In this document: positions 1-4,414 of the stretch, in pieces
How the letters are laid out: the number at the start of each line of letters is the position of its first letter
How positions within the stretch are numbered: the stretch's first letter is position 1
Source: a virus
Lineage: Duplodnaviria > Heunggongvirae > Uroviricota > Caudoviricetes
Reading direction: 5' to 3' (one strand)
Virus record (IMG/VR): IMGVR_UViG_2698536337_000012
DNA: 4,414 nucleotides
The notes under the pieces: generated by a model
The model's database searches: none
What the model was told of the DNA's origin: nothing
The model's input: only the letters and a program-made list of their open reading frames with translations
Made by a program: the position numbers and the translations under genes

Positions 1-270
1 ATGTGTGATGGTCTGTTAGTGGGTAATGCCGAAATTATTCCGTTCAGTCCGCGCAGGTATCTTTATCACGCCTATCTGGCATATATGAGGGCACACGGAT
101 TCGGTAAACCTGTAACACTGACGCGCTTCGGTAAAGATATGCCGGGGGCAATGGCGGAATATGGCAGGGAGTATATGAAACGGAAAACGAAGCACGGTTT
201 GCGTTCAAATGTGACCCTGACAGAGGATTCAGAAGACTGGATGCCATCATGTGCAATAGGTCACAAATGA
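1..270 (+). CDS. 3'-terminal fragment of a replication protein, probably the C-terminal (iteron-binding) end of a P4-family primase; 5' end lies outside the window
   Basis: Reading frame is open from base 1 and stops at TGA 268-270. It ends about 30 bp upstream of an array of TGTTCACC iterons, the motif bound by the P4 alpha primase. Assignment is by context only, not by recognised catalytic motifs. Confidence 0.4.
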   Translation: MCDGLLVGNAEIIPFSPRRYLYHAYLAYMRAHGFGKPVTLTRFGKDMPGAMAEYGREYMKRKTKHGLRSNVTLTEDSEDWMPSCAIGHK

Positions 271-319
271 CGATGGAAAAAATTAAACTTATGGAATAAC
301 TGTTCACCACTGTTCACCC

Positions 320-352
320 TGCAATAAATGTCTTTTATATCAGTATATTATA
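320..352. promoter_or_regulatory. AT-rich tract (GCAATAAATGTCTTTTATATCAGTATATTATAG) between iteron groups; candidate DNA-unwinding element
   Basis: Local AT richness flanked by iterons. Function is inferred from origin architecture, not demonstrated. Confidence 0.3.
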
Positions 353-353
353 G

Positions 354-382
354 GGTGAACAGTTATTTATGAACTGTTCACC
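354..382. repeat. Perfect inverted repeat GGTGAACAGTT - 7 bp (ATTTATG) - AACTGTTCACC, formed by two opposed iterons
   Basis: Arms 354-364 and 372-382 are exact reverse complements. Likely a dimer binding site or cruciform-capable element inside the origin-like region. Confidence 0.85.
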
Positions 383-427
383 AAACTATTCACTGTTCAC
401 CTTTTTGATTCTTTATTGAGCTTTAAG

Positions 428-459
428 GGTGAACAGTGGTGAACAGTTGGTGAATAGTT
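428..459. repeat. Three head-to-tail ~10.5-bp units GGTGAACAGT / GGTGAACAGTT / GGTGAATAGTT (helical-phase iteron triplet)
   Basis: Direct tandem repetition read from the sequence. The ~10-11 bp periodicity would place the bound proteins on one face of the helix. Confidence 0.8.
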
Positions 460-573
460 TTTGTGAAACTGTTAACCCATTAACATCATGAATAAAAAGG
501 GAAAATTGCAAAAGGTGAACAGGTGAAGGGTTAAAATGCAAAAATTTTATTTTATTGCTGTGAGGTAAAGCCT

Positions 574-1770: not shown

Positions 1771-1815
1771 TATCGATCAATAATGATGCCCGTTAATCAT
1801 AACGGAGGCAGACTT

Positions 1816-2010
1816 ATGCCAGAGAACAACAGCAGAAAACCGGATAAAAGTGCAACAGTGCACATAGACGCCGGAACTATGGAGAAGCTCGAACGCTATC
1901 AGCAGTTCATTAAAAGTCATCACCCTGGAATGCCAGTACCCACGAAAGGGCAGATTGCGAGAAGCGCGGTTGAATACTGGTACAGGGCAACGTTAGGAGC
2001 CTGGCTATGA
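1816..2010 (+). CDS. Small protein, 64 aa, with a ribbon-helix-helix-like pattern; possible DNA-binding regulator
   Basis: GGAGG at 1804-1808 lies 7 nt upstream of ATG 1816, preferred over the in-frame ATG at 1783, which lacks an RBS. Predicted beta-strand (TVHIDAG) followed by two helices is typical of Arc/MetJ/CopG-type proteins. Stop TGA 2008-2010 overlaps the protease ATG 2007 (ATGA). The frame is open back into the gap, so a longer N-terminus cannot be excluded. Confidence 0.45.
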   Translation: MPENNSRKPDKSATVHIDAGTMEKLERYQQFIKSHHPGMPVPTKGQIARSAVEYWYRATLGAWL

Positions 2011-3152
2011 AAACATGGTTTTCCATTAAGGCTATGGCTGATGTTGTACATGTACGCATTTATGACGAGATCGGCGGGTACGGTGTAAAAGCATCGGCAC
2101 TTACTGACGAGATCAACGCGTGCGGTAATGTGCCTGAAATCCATCTTCGCATCCATTCACCTGGTGGCGACATCTTTGAAGGGCTGGCTATCTATAACGC
2201 CCTGAAAAATCATCCGGCAAAGAAAATTGTACACATTGAAGGCATGGCGGCTTCTATGGCCTCGTTTATTGCCATGTGTGGCGATCACATCGTTATGCCT
2301 GAAAACGCGATGATGATGATACATGCCCCCCGTGGTGTTACTGCCGGAGTGTCGGGCGACGTTCGCCGCTTTGCTGACCTGATGGACAAGCTGGGCGACA
2401 CGATGGCGGAAACCTACGCCGGAAGAACGGGCAGGAGCAAACAGGAAATCACCGCCATGATGGAGGCGGAAACCTGGATGGATGGCAATGAGTGTAAGGC
2501 TAATGGCTTCGCAGATGAGGTTATACCCGCGATTACAGCAATGGCCAGAATTGAATCAAAACGAATCGGAGATTTTTCGAATATGCCGGAAAATATTAAA
2601 AGCATGATCAGCCAGAAAACTGGCAGCGGAGAACAGGAACGACTCAACGGGATACGTGAATTGTTTGGCACGTTCAATGGAAGATATAACGACCTGGCTA
2701 TAAGTTGTCTTGCTGATTCAGGCTGTAGCGTTGAGGATGCACGCGAACGCCTTTTACTCACTATGGGTAAAGAATCGACACCGACAAACAAAACCACCCC
2801 CGCAAATCTTTACTACGCGTACACGGATAACGGCAACATAACCGGCGATGCAATGCGTCAGGGGCTTAATGCGCGTCTGGGACATGAACAGGCAGAACGC
2901 GGCAACCCTTACGCCATGATGAGCCTTTTCGATATGGCACAGGCATCATTAACCCATCGCGGCATAAGCACAGGCAGCTACAGCACACGCTCGCAGATAG
3001 TAAACGCGGCATTCACCCACAGCAGCAGCGATTTTACTTATATCCTTGCTGGTGGTGCTGAAAAATCCGTGAACACAGCGGCGAAACGTTCCGCCAGTGG
3101 ACGAAAAAAGGTTCATTGTCAAACTTCCATGAGGCACGTCGTGTTGGCCTGA
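2007..3152 (+). CDS. Prohead (head-maturation) protease, ClpP-like serine peptidase (S14 family), with a ~190-aa C-terminal extension (scaffold-like or capsid N-terminal region)
   Basis: G-M-A-A-S-M-A with putative catalytic Ser83 (codon 2253-2255) and M-I-H-A-P with putative His106 (codon 2322-2324) match the ClpP G-x-A-A-S-M-G and M-I-H-Q-P motifs with similar spacing. The ORF continues ~190 aa beyond the protease domain and ends at TGA 3150-3152, overlapping the next ORF. Confidence 0.85.
   Translation: MKTWFSIKAMADVVHVRIYDEIGGYGVKASALTDEINACGNVPEIHLRIHSPGGDIFEGLAIYNALKNHPAKKIVHIEGMAASMASFIAMCGDHIVMPENAMMMIHAPRGVTAGVSGDVRRFADLMDKLGDTMAETYAGRTGRSKQEITAMMEAETWMDGNECKANGFADEVIPAITAMARIESKRIGDFSNMPENIKSMISQKTGSGEQERLNGIRELFGTFNGRYNDLAISCLADSGCSVEDARERLLLTMGKESTPTNKTTPANLYYAYTDNGNITGDAMRQGLNARLGHEQAERGNPYAMMSLFDMAQASLTHRGISTGSYSTRSQIVNAAFTHSSSDFTYILAGGAEKSVNTAAKRSASGRKKVHCQTSMRHVVLA
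3104..3110 (+). other. Candidate -1 ribosomal slippery heptamer A_AAA_AAG, in phase with the protease ORF
   Basis: Protease-frame codons are CGA(3102-3104) AAA(3105-3107) AAG(3108-3110). A -1 slip continues in the capsid frame at GGT 3110-3112, reading ...SGRKK-GSLSNFHEARR.... Identical heptamer to the dnaX and IS911 shift sites. Confidence 0.4.
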
Positions 3153-3874
3153 ATGGCTTCTCTACATTAAACAAAGTGCCGGAAGGCGCGGAATATAAAT
3201 ACATCACCACCAGTGACCGTGGCGAACCAATCGCGCTGGCAACTTACGGAAATATTTTCAGCATTACCCGACAGGCGATTATTAACGATGACCTGAATCA
3301 GTTAACAGTTATCCCACAGGCAATGGGGCGAGCAGCCGCCAGAACGGTGGGTAATCTGGTTCATCTGGTGCTGACAGGAAACACAAAGCTTTCTGACGGT
3401 ATACCGCTGTTCAGCAAAAAACACGGAAATGATATTGATAACGGAGTCAGCACTACAGGGCTTGGCATTGCACGCCGTGCAATGCGCACACAGAGGGATG
3501 AAAACGGTGAGGTGCTGAATATTGTGCCAAAATTCCTTCTTGTTCCTGCGGCTCTGGAAGACAGAGCGTTGCAAATGGTTAACTCAACCACGCCTTTCGG
3601 TGCCGATACAAACAGTGGTTCATATAACCCGTACCACAAACAACTGGATATTATTGTCGATCCCCGCCTTGATGAAGTCAGTGATAAGCAATGGTACATG
3701 CTTTCAGCACAGGGAACGGACACAATTGAGGTGGCTTATCTTGACGGTAATGACGAGCCTTACCTTGAGCAGCAGGAGGGCTTTATTGTTGACGGTGTGG
3801 CCTGGAAGGTCCGCATTGATGCTGGCGTTGCTGCTCTGGATTATCGCGGAATGGTCAGAGCGATTTCTTCATGA
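3116..3874 (+). CDS. Probable major capsid protein (HK97-fold type; family not assignable by eye). Coordinates are for the TTG-initiated ORF; the frame is open from 3062 and the real N-terminus may come from the upstream frame
   Basis: Lies immediately downstream of, and overlapping, the prohead protease gene. ~250-270 aa, a plausible size for a compact HK97-fold shell protein. The only in-frame start near the 5' end is TTG 3116 with a weak AAGG; the next in-frame ATG is ~70 codons in. Ends TGA 3872-3874 just before a strong terminator. Confidence 0.55.
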   Translation: MSNFHEARRVGLNGFSTLNKVPEGAEYKYITTSDRGEPIALATYGNIFSITRQAIINDDLNQLTVIPQAMGRAAARTVGNLVHLVLTGNTKLSDGIPLFSKKHGNDIDNGVSTTGLGIARRAMRTQRDENGEVLNIVPKFLLVPAALEDRALQMVNSTTPFGADTNSGSYNPYHKQLDIIVDPRLDEVSDKQWYMLSAQGTDTIEVAYLDGNDEPYLEQQEGFIVDGVAWKVRIDAGVAALDYRGMVRAISS

Positions 3875-3878
3875 GAAC

Positions 3879-3902
3879 AAGGCGGCAGCAGCCGCCTTTT
3901 TT
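3879..3902 (+). terminator. Rho-independent terminator: GGCGGC - AGCA loop - GCCGCC followed by T6
   Basis: Perfect 6-bp GC stem at 3881-3886 / 3891-3896, 4-nt loop, then TTTTTT at 3897-3902, starting 7 nt after the capsid stop codon. Confidence 0.8.
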
Positions 3903-4132
3903 GCGGGTCCTCCTGGTGGGGGGGGCCTGTCCACGGGGCGGGTCGGCGCGGAAAAAAGCGCATTTTTGTGGTTTTATCGTCATCATCATCATGTGTGTAA
4001 CCTGTTGTTTTTAATGTAGTTGATGCAAAAAAGATGATGATTGTGGTTAATTTTTGTTCGACATCTTTTAGCGTGACAGATTCTTTACAAAAAATCTGAG
4101 CTTGTTTTCTTAACCAGCGCGATGGGGGCACA

Positions 4133-4414
4133 ATGACAGAAGCCGAAATACTGGGATTAATCCGCCGCGTCGCCGGAATCAGCCAGCAGGTTGACGAACA
4201 GGCCATGCAACCGGACAGCGTGACCGCTGAAAATTATGCGCGTGTGGTGGATGAGGTAATGCGCCGTGACGGTATTGAGCTTAACGGCGTGGATATGCGC
4301 AACATACGAACCAGAGTTCTTGAGTTGCTGGCATACCGTCGCCGTTCTCAACAACGGAGGGAGAGCGCGAAAAATACTTACCAGTGGAGGAAGCCGGAGC
4401 ACTTACGGCGGTAA
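4133..4414 (+). CDS. Hypothetical small protein, 93 aa, with an Arg/Lys-rich C-terminus; possibly a head-completion, DNA-packaging or nucleic-acid-binding protein
   Basis: ATG 4133 is preceded by a G5 run at 4124-4128. Stop TAA 4412-4414 coincides with the window end. C-terminal 27 residues (AYRRRSQQRRESAKNTYQWRKPEHLRR) are strongly basic. Function is guessed from position downstream of the capsid gene. Confidence 0.45.
   Translation: MTEAEILGLIRRVAGISQQVDEQAMQPDSVTAENYARVVDEVMRRDGIELNGVDMRNIRTRVLELLAYRRRSQQRRESAKNTYQWRKPEHLRR

Follow-up and report, generated by a model that had tools for sequence, protein, structure and literature searches.

Related phage satellites

The described elements closest to this locus are EcCICFT073 and related phage-inducible chromosomal islands (PICIs) of Escherichia coli (Fillol-Salom et al. 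2018, PMC6092414; 2019, PMC6739421). With the island described here they have backbone and gene order in common: int, an alpA-type regulator, Icd-like and DUF4222 genes, pri-rep, an iteron origin directly 3′ of pri-rep, a small ORF, the SSB gene, a late cassette that holds a capsid gene as well as cos sites, and, at the end, a conserved ORF of 93 aa. Both cos sites of EcCICFT073 are functional; its induction runs via AlpA, and it needs the helper TerS (PMC6092414, PMC6739421). It is packaged in full-size capsids, and in this single tested case deletion of its lambda-type capsid and decoration genes, which differ from the capsid gene described below, altered neither transfer nor interference (PMC6092414).

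For the SaPIbov5 Ccm protein (PMC5052747, PMC8569155), a switch of helper capsids to a small isometric form has been demonstrated, whereas no size redirection is known for capsid genes of enterobacterial PICIs. The capsid-forming PICIs (cf-PICIs, e.g., EcCIEDL933; bioRxiv 10.1101/2022.09.08.507074) encode head protease and capsid functions and, additionally, HNH, TerS, TerL, portal and head–tail connectors, and build their own capsids.

The window as a probable part of an EcCICFT073-type island

The window, i.e., the whole 4,414-nucleotide stretch analyzed here, is the right-hand part of an already described type of enterobacterial satellite, the EcCICFT073-type PICI. It very probably represents one half, from replication to packaging, of a Gram-negative PICI in the EcCICFT073 family, an ~11-kb satellite of lambdoid cos phages (Table 1). 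Complete relatives span ~10.7 kb and contain an integrase, an AlpA-like regulator, the primase, the origin, an SSB, the capsid fusion and cos. In the complete E. coli relative from RM10410 (L001), the 10.7-kb island occupies a chromosomal site between pgrR and mppA, with the gene order int, HTH regulator, BRO-N, YlcI, Icd-like, DUF4222, primase, hyp, SSB, small ORF, fusion and hyp93. The order is identical in EcCICFT073 (L004 37930–48654), with which the window shares 83% DNA identity across the hyp–SSB region and 82% in the last ORF. The integrase and AlpA genes would lie outside the window; we infer their presence from relatives that are 92–97% identical over the shared part.

Table 1. Features of the window and the evidence for them
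Feature	Position	Strand	Evidence or remarks
pri-rep 3′ end	1..270	+	C-terminal winged-helix origin-binding domain of a P4-alpha-type primase-helicase
Replication origin	294..523		8 exact and 2 one-mismatch P4 type-1 iterons TGTTCACC
Conserved small protein, 81 aa	574..819	+	PHROG phrog_1231, E=4.7e-49; PICI backbone member
SSB, 140 aa	816..1238	+	Pfam SSB, E=3.9e-16; TIGR00621 above its cut-off
Scaffold gap, 452 N	1258..1709		371 real bp in 100%-identical contigs (L089 3687-3317, minus strand)
Scaffold gap, 26 N	1745..1770		No real sequence behind; flanks overlap by 2 nt in L089-L091
Small ORF, 64 aa from ATG 1816 (75 aa from 1783)	1816..2010	+	phrog_4934, E=4.3e-40
ClpP-like prohead protease/scaffold-linker/major capsid protein fusion	2007..3874	+	NCBIfam NF045540; inactivated by 13-bp deletion between 3069 and 3070
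Terminator-like hairpin GGCGGC-AGCA-GCCGCC + T6	3881..3902	+	Read directly from the sequence; directly 3′ of the fusion gene
cos2, lambdoid packaging site	3905..4060	+	cosQ-like GGGTCCT 3905-3911, 24 nt, cosN-like ACG/GGGCGGGTCGGCGCGG 3933-3951
hyp93, conserved 93-aa protein, last backbone gene	4133..4414	+	phrog_1561, E=2.9e-53

The sequence-only reading, which took the locus for a possible capsid-encoding satellite, had pointed to the flanks as a place where a complete tailed phage might appear, and to integrase, an AlpA-like regulator, the terminase small subunit and portal as genes to be sought. The complete relatives show an island of roughly 10.7 kb and not a full tailed phage; integrase and the AlpA-like regulator are present, the terminase small subunit and portal are absent. 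That reading had seen no terminase or portal between the replication and head genes; there is none in the entire window, nor across the whole island of close relatives. The complete islands also lack terL, head–tail adaptor/connector and tail genes, and no Rpp, TerS, TerL or portal homologue was found in the island. A point against the assignment is that terS/rpp, one component of the five-part PICI model, is missing. The neighborhood of a P4-type replicon and a capsid gene had been regarded as unusual; it is not, since a capsid-morphogenesis gene is one of the five core components of that model (PMC10085698) and is present in 21 of the 29 reference Gram-negative PICIs (PMC10111431).

Closing the two runs of N, as had been proposed, was possible with three contigs (L089–L091) that are 100% identical to the window. 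These rule out unidentified inserts: both runs are scaffold gaps. Behind the longer one lie the SSB terminator, the first cos-like copy, cos1 (...GGTACTCCTGGTGGGGGTGGCCTGTCCACGGGGCGGGCGGTTCGCGG...; RM10410 counterpart L001 16265–16363), and then an intergenic region; at the shorter one, L001 is likewise without an insert.

The late cassette, consisting of two direct cos-like copies, the small ORF and the protease–scaffold–capsid fusion gene, is swappable; it lies between two conserved genes, SSB on one side and the last gene, hyp93, on the other. The genes are tightly packed: the stop of the 81-aa gene overlaps the SSB start, and that of the small ORF overlaps the fusion-gene start (ATGA). This small ORF is specific to the fusion cassette and shows no similarity to the one preceding the capsid gene of EcCICFT073 (L004 45462–45665). 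The hyp93 protein is 75% identical to the last ORF of EcCICFT073, and its gene starts where terS of the helper phage would begin. It shows no similarity to phage TerS, and in the PDB it has no meaningful match (best E=0.0088, to the unrelated QmcA) and none to Rpp, which rules it out as a TerS or Rpp relative.

A P4-type replicon in a probable satellite of lambdoid phages

Both replication elements recognized from the sequence alone were confirmed. The first ORF matches Pfam Pox_D5 (E=2.4e-11) and the P4 alpha origin-binding domain, PDB 1KA8 (E=1.9e-22), with 51% identity to P4 alpha residues 690–771. The full Pri-Rep, seen as an ORF in L091 and annotated in L001 (identical or related contigs), has 605 aa and is 50% identical to P4 alpha over the helicase and origin-binding domains. 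The iterons, found on both strands, are confined to 301–521 in the window; in 200 dinucleotide-preserving shuffles the octamer occurred 0.18 times on average, and none reached eight copies. It is the very octamer annotated in P4 as the ‘ori type 1 repeat’ (ori/crr repeats), and P4 9309–9367 aligns with window 427–484. The iterons form two oppositely oriented sets around an AT-rich center, in agreement with published PICI origins, where an AT-rich region lies between two iteron sets (PMC6092414, Fig. 2 legend). Directly downstream of pri-rep and followed by the SSB gene, the TGTTCACC iteron origin is the cognate of the P4-alpha-type Pri-Rep. The allele and its iterons differ from those of EcCICFT073, which has CTGTCTACC-type repeats.

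The shared alpha-type helicase and origin-binding domain, the identical type-1 iterons, the status of both elements as roughly 11-kb integrative satellites and the 33% identity of a relative's integrase to that of P4 would all fit a P4-like satellite of a P2-type helper that acquired a phage head module. We consider this extremely unlikely: homologues of sid, delta, psu and epsilon were not found in the island and no P2/P4-type cos sequence was detected, whereas P4 has these genes and a P2-type cos; the cos is of lambdoid type and matches that of Stx-type phages, pointing to a different helper type; the gene order is that of EcCICFT073 and not of P4; and the origin directly follows the primase gene, whereas P4 has split ori and crr. 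Moreover, the likeness of Pri-Rep, AlpA and Int between PICIs and P4 is treated as distant homology only (PMC6092414). Of the original proposal, therefore, a satellite with its own capsid-related gene beside a P4-alpha-type replicon stands, but a P4-like satellite does not.

The cos sites and the likely helper

In cos2, the cosQ–cosN architecture and spacing are as in lambda, and cosN is followed by a cosB-like stretch of about 110 nt that contains ATCATCATC/GATGATGAT repeats. Over about 160 nt, cos2 shares 87–90% identity with the sequence directly preceding terS in Stx2a/Stx2d-converting phages and in VT1-Sakai; for CP-1639 and 1720a-02 the identity is about 84% over about 100 nt. The cosN-like core of the window has one extra T relative to the phages and to RM10410 cos2, which might affect cutting. 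Two cos-like copies of lambdoid cosQ/cosN architecture are common to this island and EcCICFT073; the two differ in that the window cos, including its cosB-like part, resembles that of Stx/mEp460-type phages, whereas EcCICFT073 combines a lambda/phi80 cosQ–cosN with a private cosB, and in that the copies flank the capsid cassette as direct repeats here but rpp as inverted repeats in EcCICFT073.

The Stx-converting lambdoid phages with a matching cos possess the same fusion-type head gene, and solely from this cos and capsid similarity we infer that the helper is probably a phage of that type. A modest new point is that the capsid type of the island agrees with the cos type of the helper: the window has the protease–scaffold–capsid fusion, while EcCICFT073 has a lambda cosQ/cosN together with homologues of lambda gpE and gpD and with RppC, for which this island has no counterpart.

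A frameshifted protease–capsid fusion

The profile searches that had been suggested bore out the two head domains: the ORF at 2007–3152 has a ClpP-type protease domain (E=3.7e-33) and that at 3116–3874 the capsid domain Phage_capsid_4 (E=1.5e-49). They do not represent two genes. The model NF045540 (‘ClpP-like prohead protease/major capsid protein fusion’, 652 positions) covers both, with best stretches of 2–193 in the first and 400–650 in the second, and relative to intact E. coli copies the 13-bp deletion is the only frame-disrupting lesion, a 9-bp gap near the stop being in frame. The first ORF thus encodes the protease, the linker, the initial portion of the capsid domain and 27 out-of-frame residues, and the second the rest of the capsid domain. 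The residues lost are LAGW, including an invariant G–W, while the Ser (AASM) and His (MIHxP) motifs are conserved. The exact junction recurs in four independent IMG/VR contigs, and hence the deletion is not a read error. Since the two ORFs are halves of one frameshifted gene for a fusion of 620–630 aa, the small capsid protein of ~255–270 aa, once thought to fit a small particle, is an artefact, namely a C-terminal remnant. The anticipated capsid fold fared better: capsid structures have been solved for the family of this domain, a profile of which matches the Mu-GpT-type major capsid proteins 8RKX/8RKC/9JOD (E about 8e-11). Like SaPIbov5 Ccm, the fusion is a satellite-encoded, diverged homologue of the HK97-type capsid protein of the helper, in an element that is cos-packaged without a terminase of its own; the ClpP-type protease domain is an addition relative to Ccm. 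A terminator consensus scan listed only a minus-strand version of the hairpin that follows the gene.

An island that builds complete small capsids and packaging machinery itself and steals only tails, i.e., a cf-PICI, would likewise encode a head protease and a major capsid protein; the int–alpA–pri left half is alike in kind in PICIs and cf-PICIs, and some cf-PICIs have protease–capsid fusions (PMC10085698). This reading, in essence the capsid-forming island first suggested, is nonetheless scarcely credible, as the defining terL, portal and head–tail adaptor/connector genes (plus HNH and terS) occur neither in the window nor in the complete island of its relatives, which is 10.7 kb with a single head gene that is broken in this copy.

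For the EcCICFT073-type island favored here, published work on EcCICFT073 suggests the following life cycle. A helper phage would induce the AlpA activator, upon which the island would excise and replicate from its own origin as concatemers; the helper terminase would then cut and package it at its cos into helper-built particles. The island probably uses the helper TerS directly, because its cosB-like region is phage-like and Rpp/TerS are absent. The most likely role of the capsid fusion is to modulate helper head assembly or to interfere with it, not to form a capsid alone; with the fusion inactivated, this copy would therefore have to depend wholly on helper capsids.

Evolution of the satellite-borne fusions

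The frameshift might also suggest a decaying prophage remnant or chance mosaic, a leftover head-gene fragment beside an unrelated replicon without a satellite life cycle. One contig of the identical lineage has an IS21 in the last gene, a truncated second element adjoins the island in another, and dS along the fusion gene is so uneven (0.06, 0.24 and 0.81) as to indicate recombination. Even so, we judge a remnant quite improbable, for cos sites, origin and primase are all intact, and 143 complete E. coli genomes have the compact architecture in unbroken form, which recurs in other genera beside the same primase type. Further, the fusions are not fragments of resident prophages. Nine island copies (Escherichia, Kluyvera, Yersinia, Buttiauxella, Rahnella and Moellerella) group in a single clade apart from the phage copies (neighbor-joining bootstrap 100%), and the closest phage homologue, the Stx-phage protease/scaffold–capsid fusion, has about 52% amino-acid identity. 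Between the window fusion and an intact E. coli copy, dN/dS amounts to 0.13 for the whole gene and to about 0.11 for each of its three parts, values indicative of purifying selection. This separate clade under purifying selection is the second modest new point; the island capsid fusion belongs to an old, satellite-specific lineage maintained by selection.

The relatives in Kluyvera (L010) and Rahnella (L077) resemble the helper-embedded PICIs (HE-PICIs; PMC10111431): they are inserted into the head operon of a prophage, with its portal gene on one side and its own protease–capsid gene on the other, and they contain a homologue of the gene that they interrupt, which has also been described for 11capE (PMC10111431). 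In the Kluyvera case, the island fusion is only 59% identical to the copy of the surrounding prophage. Unlike these, the window-type E. coli island, at its pgrR–mppA site, resides in the chromosome away from any helper.

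Class of the element

All convincing genes of the window lie on the + strand; its features and those of the related loci are collected in the table below. The window opens on the 3′ end of a larger gene, which is 605 aa long both in L091, an IMG/VR contig, and in L001, the complete relative from E. coli RM10410. This end matches a domain of known structure, which in the phage P4 alpha primase lies at the C terminus and binds the origin. The island primase is 50% identical to residues 320–776 of P4 alpha, and no alignment to the N-terminal primase domain of the latter was obtained. 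Immediately 3′ of this primase-replicase gene lies an origin with iterons, which is a feature of the PICI model: TGTTCACC, the octamer annotated as 'ori type 1 repeat' in the P4 record, is found there and nowhere else in the window (dinucleotide-preserving shuffles gave a mean of 0.18 copies and never reached 8). The sequence-only reading of a P4-type iteron origin beside a probable primase 3′ end was right at the sequence level, because of the 1KA8 match and the octamer shared with the P4 ori.

Features of the window and of related loci (window positions unless a locus is named)
Feature	Position	Strand	Evidence or remark
Pri-rep gene, 3′ end	1–270	+	Pfam Pox_D5; PDB 1KA8, E = 1.9e-22
TGTTCACC iterons	301–521	both	8 exact and 2 one-mismatch copies
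Stretch alignable to P4 ori DNA	427–484		
81-aa conserved ORF, then SSB gene	downstream of iterons	+	phrog_1231 for the 81-aa ORF
452-N run	1258–1709		371 real bases, holding the SSB terminator and cos1
Gap sequence with cos1, as read from contig L089	L089 3687–3317	−	cos1 with a degenerate cosQ (GGTACT)
Cassette small ORF	1816–2010		phrog_4934; overlaps the fusion start
Protease–capsid fusion, split	2007–3874	+	L001 counterpart, 16895–18784
First ORF of fusion	2007–3152	+	N-terminal part of NF045540, best stretch positions 2–193
Second ORF of fusion	3116–3874	+	NF045540 positions 400–650
13-bp deletion	between 3069 and 3070		GCTTGCAGGCTGG missing
Heptamer A_AAA_AAG	3105–3111	+	in phase, reading CGA AAA AAG; surrounding stretch 3098–3115
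cos2	3905–4060		3′ of the fusion
cosQ-like GGGTCCT of cos2	right after fusion terminator	+	24 nt, then ACG/GGGCGGGTCGGCGCGG
cosN-like core of cos2	3936–3951		
Integrase (tyrosine)	L001 8663–9901		left end, outside the window; 33% identity to P4 integrase
HTH regulator next to int	L001 9915–10118		annotation; Pfam HTH_17 sub-threshold, E = 0.0043
EcCICFT073	L004 37930–48654		in CFT073

Exact matches to the window were found only in four IMG/VR contigs (L088–L091). Among 5,426 complete E. coli genomes, 1,827 match it in part, and in 71 the match spans at least 80% of the window at about 91–92% identity, the best genomes showing 90–97% identity. The scan of species-representative genomes returned no near-identical locus, its best match being at 62% amino-acid identity. 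The primase–SSB part is 96.7% identical to RM10410 and the capsid–cos part 89.7%. The identical contigs show the N runs to be scaffold gaps and allowed them to be closed, as the sequence-only reading had proposed: the 452 N stand for 371 bp, and the 26-N run for no sequence at all, its flanks overlapping by 2 nt.

The RM10410 island spans 10.7 kb between pgrR and mppA and encodes, in order, an integrase, an HTH regulator, BRO-N (frameshifted), YlcI/YnfO, an Icd-like protein, a DUF4222 protein, the primase, a small ORF, SSB, a second small ORF, the protease–capsid fusion and a 93-aa last ORF. Its annotation lists no terminase, portal, connector, tail or lysis genes (the absence of connectors is read from this annotation only), and tblastn likewise found no TerL or portal. 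The earlier remark that neither terminase nor portal is visible therefore holds for the complete relative, which also has the proposed integrase and lacks tail genes; its HTH regulator is a candidate for the proposed alpA-like one.

The PICI model of SatelliteFinder has five core components (PMC10085698). Besides the origin, the element has the capsid-morphogenesis gene, in the form of the fusion (frameshifted in the window), and, through its relative, a tyrosine integrase at the left end, beside which the annotated HTH regulator is a candidate for the AlpA-type regulator of PICIs. Its size falls in the PICI range of about 10–20 kb, and genes for tail, holin, portal and head-tail connectors are missing, as expected of a PICI. 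Neither TerS nor RppC has a homologue in the window, in the contigs identical to it or in the L001 island. As the small terminase/Rpp component is missing, the island would count as a four-of-five 'Type B' PICI; such elements are described as frequent and functional (PMC10085698), and the lack of terS is also described for 11capE and EcCICFT073 (PMC10111431).

Two other satellite classes were weighed. P4-like satellites have seven core components: int, psu, delta, sid, alpA, epsilon and alpha (PMC10085698). The island resembles P4 in its alpha-type primase-helicase and its identical type-1 iteron octamer, but the psu–delta–sid operon and epsilon belong to P4 and are absent here: tblastn (E ≤ 1e-3) found no Sid, Delta, Psu or Epsilon in the window, L088–L091 or the L001 island. 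A search of the window, L089 and the L001 island for the P4 cos junction, which is of P2 type (19-nt cohesive end GGCGAGGCGGGGAAAGCAC), gave only one chance hit of 12 nt. Capsid-forming PICIs (cf-PICIs) are set apart by their genes for TerL, portal, head-tail adaptor and connector (PMC10085698), and the RM10410 island differs from them in having none of these.

The closest precedent is EcCICFT073, the experimentally studied prototype of Gram-negative PICIs. Its gene order is that of the window-type island, and its small-ORF–SSB block and last ORF are 82–83% identical in DNA to the window. Given this order and the lack of terminase, portal, P4 genes and a P2-type cos, the element is a PICI carrying a P4-alpha-like Pri-Rep allele, and neither a P4-like satellite nor a cf-PICI. 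Of the earlier proposal of a capsid-encoding satellite, the satellite with a capsid-related gene survives; the capsid-forming part falls for want of terL, portal and connectors, and the P4-like part for want of sid and its partners. The juxtaposition of replication and capsid genes, which had seemed unusual, is the family's normal architecture, since the published PICI model and precedents carry a capsid gene. The window thus adds one more ordinary PICI to a known family.

A protease–capsid fusion split by a 13-bp deletion

What had been taken for a separate prohead protease and capsid protein is one gene, whose two ORFs match the two halves of NCBIfam NF045540, the 'ClpP-like prohead protease/major capsid protein fusion protein' (652 profile positions). 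The profile searches of both ORFs that the sequence-only reading had recommended matched this family and PHROG 133, which gives the same picture. The layout of a single polypeptide—ClpP-type protease with its Ser and His motifs kept, linker and capsid domain—is present, and interrupted in the window. The capsid-domain profile matches the solved Mu-GpT-type capsid proteins 8RKX, 8RKC and 9JOD (E about 8e-11), by which the domain is predicted to belong to the HK97-fold group, as a Mu gpT-like member.

Alignment to the intact 629-aa RM10410 gene shows that the window lacks 13 bases, the sole frame-disrupting difference between the two; a second gap, of 9 bp just 5′ of the stop, is in-frame. The deletion removes LAGW, including a Gly-Trp pair invariant across 13 island and phage homologues. 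The resulting allele encodes 381 aa, in which protease and linker are followed by the beginning of the capsid domain and then by 27 out-of-frame residues; the remainder is left as an orphan C-terminal capsid fragment. As both ORFs are parts of one frameshifted gene, the small capsid protein of 255–270 aa proposed earlier is an artefact of a pseudogene. All four IMG/VR contigs show precisely this junction, and since three of them match the window at 100% identity, the lesion is inherited and not a read error. The fusion is intact in the E. coli relatives; the deletion is a recent loss in the window lineage, whose copy of the capsid gene is dead.

A_AAA_AAG is a classic −1 slippery heptamer, and one lies in phase downstream of the deletion, where a −1 slip would restore the original capsid frame. 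Functional rescue by this route seems unlikely, because the product would be without the invariant Gly-Trp and carry about 13 wrong residues.

Evolution of the fusion

Between the window and RM10410 the fusion shows an overall dN/dS of 0.13 at a dS of 0.37. The protease, middle and capsid parts each have a dN/dS of about 0.11, while dS rises roughly 14-fold along the gene, from 0.06 through 0.24 to 0.81; this difference in dS at near-constant dN/dS implies an internal recombination breakpoint.

Species-representative genomes of Kluyvera, Yersinia, Buttiauxella, Rahnella and Moellerella contain further copies that have no portal gene before them, and three of these adjoin a primase 76–78% identical to that of the island. 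Neighbour joining groups the nine island-borne copies in a single clade (bootstrap 100%), with the enterobacterial phage copies separate (96%). The island copy of L010 (Kluyvera genomosp. 1) shares only 59% identity with the one that belongs to its host prophage. All island copies are also shorter after the protease domain, with 150–155 aa versus 165–183 aa in phages. The island fusions are an old, maintained satellite lineage and not recent captures.

In L010 and in L077 (Rahnella victoriana) the island is inserted into a prophage head operon, with the portal gene on one side and the fusion gene of the phage itself on the other, a layout published as the 'helper-embedded PICI' configuration (PMC10111431). 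What is left of the phage ORF in L010 starts close to the active-site Ser motif of the protease, so that the satellite disrupts the gene whose homologue it bears.

Packaging site and likely helper

Downstream of the fusion, cos2 has the same cosQ–spacer–cosN layout as lambda (GGGTCCT, 23 nt, ACG/GGGCGGCGACCT). Window 3899–4060 is 87–90% identical to Stx2a- and Stx2d-converting phages and VT1-Sakai, and about 100 nt of it match CP-1639 and 1720a-02 at about 84%. In lambdoid phages cos is positioned upstream of terS, and in phage Stx2_95 the cos2-like stretch lies 76 nt upstream of that gene. The island carries the helper's cos site in cos2, which resembles this pre-terS region, and a further cos-like copy, cos1, recovered from the identical contigs. 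The Stx-type phages, with mEp460 and the cdtI group, also hold the closest phage homologues of the island fusion (~52% identity over 99% of its length), which there follows terS, terL and the portal gene.

EcCICFT073 instead has the lambda cosQ–cosN almost verbatim, with homologues of lambda gpE (PF03864) and gpD (PF02924) and RppC (PDB 6HLK). With the Stx type here and the lambda type there, the late cassette, which is bounded by the conserved SSB gene and the last ORF, exists in at least two versions, and in each of them cos type and capsid type indicate one and the same helper family. The likely helpers of the window-type island are hence Stx/mEp460-type lambdoid phages, not P2-type ones.

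EcCICFT073 has two functional cos sites and needs the helper TerS, reprogrammed by Rpp (PMC6092414, PMC6739421). The RppC located in that element has no homologue in the window island, and the cosB-like region of cos2 resembles that of the phage. As the island has neither Rpp nor TerS and its cosB-like region is phage-like, we infer that it uses the helper TerS directly.

The cos1 and cos2 copies enclose the capsid cassette as direct repeats, about 2.6 kb apart, unlike EcCICFT073 and the PICIs of EC4115 and 042, where two lambda-type copies are inverted around rpp/terS. Similarity of cos1 is lost about 50 nt past its cosN-like core. Compared with RM10410 cos2 and the Stx2a phage (GGGCGGGCGGCGCGG), the core of the window's cos2 is longer by one T; in length it equals the RM10410 cos1 copy.

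Role of the capsid gene

Deletion of the capsid or decoration gene of EcCICFT073 left transfer and interference unaltered, with packaging in phage-sized capsids (PMC6092414). Capsid genes of enterobacterial PICIs are counted as a core component, yet the only one tested was dispensable. The satellite-specific clade, the purifying selection and the cos type of phages with the same head suggest that the fusion is under selection for a role that concerns the head assembly of the helper. We consider it rather improbable that an intact fusion assembles around the helper portal into satellite-specific, possibly smaller shells, filled by the helper terminase via the island cos. Linker shortening in island copies, purifying selection and the capsid–cos match are compatible with such shells but do not show them. 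If real, they would be an intermediate between classical PICIs, with all-helper capsids, and cf-PICIs, with all-satellite capsids.

The main value of the analysis lies in a corrected annotation, with one broken fusion in place of a protease and a small capsid protein and a lambdoid helper in place of a P2-type one. The helper assignment through cos and capsid type, the satellite clade under purifying selection and its common linker shortening are modest additions. Since many of the likely helpers are Stx-converting phages, islands of this type might affect Shiga-toxin phage production.

Small ORFs and neighbouring elements

PDB searches with the three small window ORFs gave no meaningful match, and an Rpp or TerS identity was rejected for them, there being no PDB match and no RppC homologue in the island; the 93-aa last ORF is not TerS-like on comparison. 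The cassette small ORF is specific to its cassette and unrelated to the small ORF before the EcCICFT073 capsid gene; a strand-like N-terminal segment, judged by eye, suggests a candidate ribbon-helix-helix DNA-binding protein. An Rfam E-value scan of the relative's island for a known RNA between SSB and capsid genes returned only sub-threshold, implausible miRNA and snoRNA families, and consensus scans for promoters and terminators gave counts at or below shuffle expectation.

In L090 (1–2130), a contig otherwise identical to the window, an IS21 element (istA/istB, 100% identical to E. coli copies) breaks the 3′ end of the 93-aa last ORF near window position 4363. In L088 (1–5686, minus strand), a partial second element follows in tandem just 3′ of that ORF. 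The N-terminal primase domain is missing from its 460-aa primase, its origin has the same iterons and is 93% identical, and a HEPN-domain ORF runs in the opposite direction. It also has an intact 637-aa fusion of a different allele (76% DNA identity over ~560 nt aligned) and, after it, a DUF1441/TerS-like gene 48% identical to Stx phage TerS.
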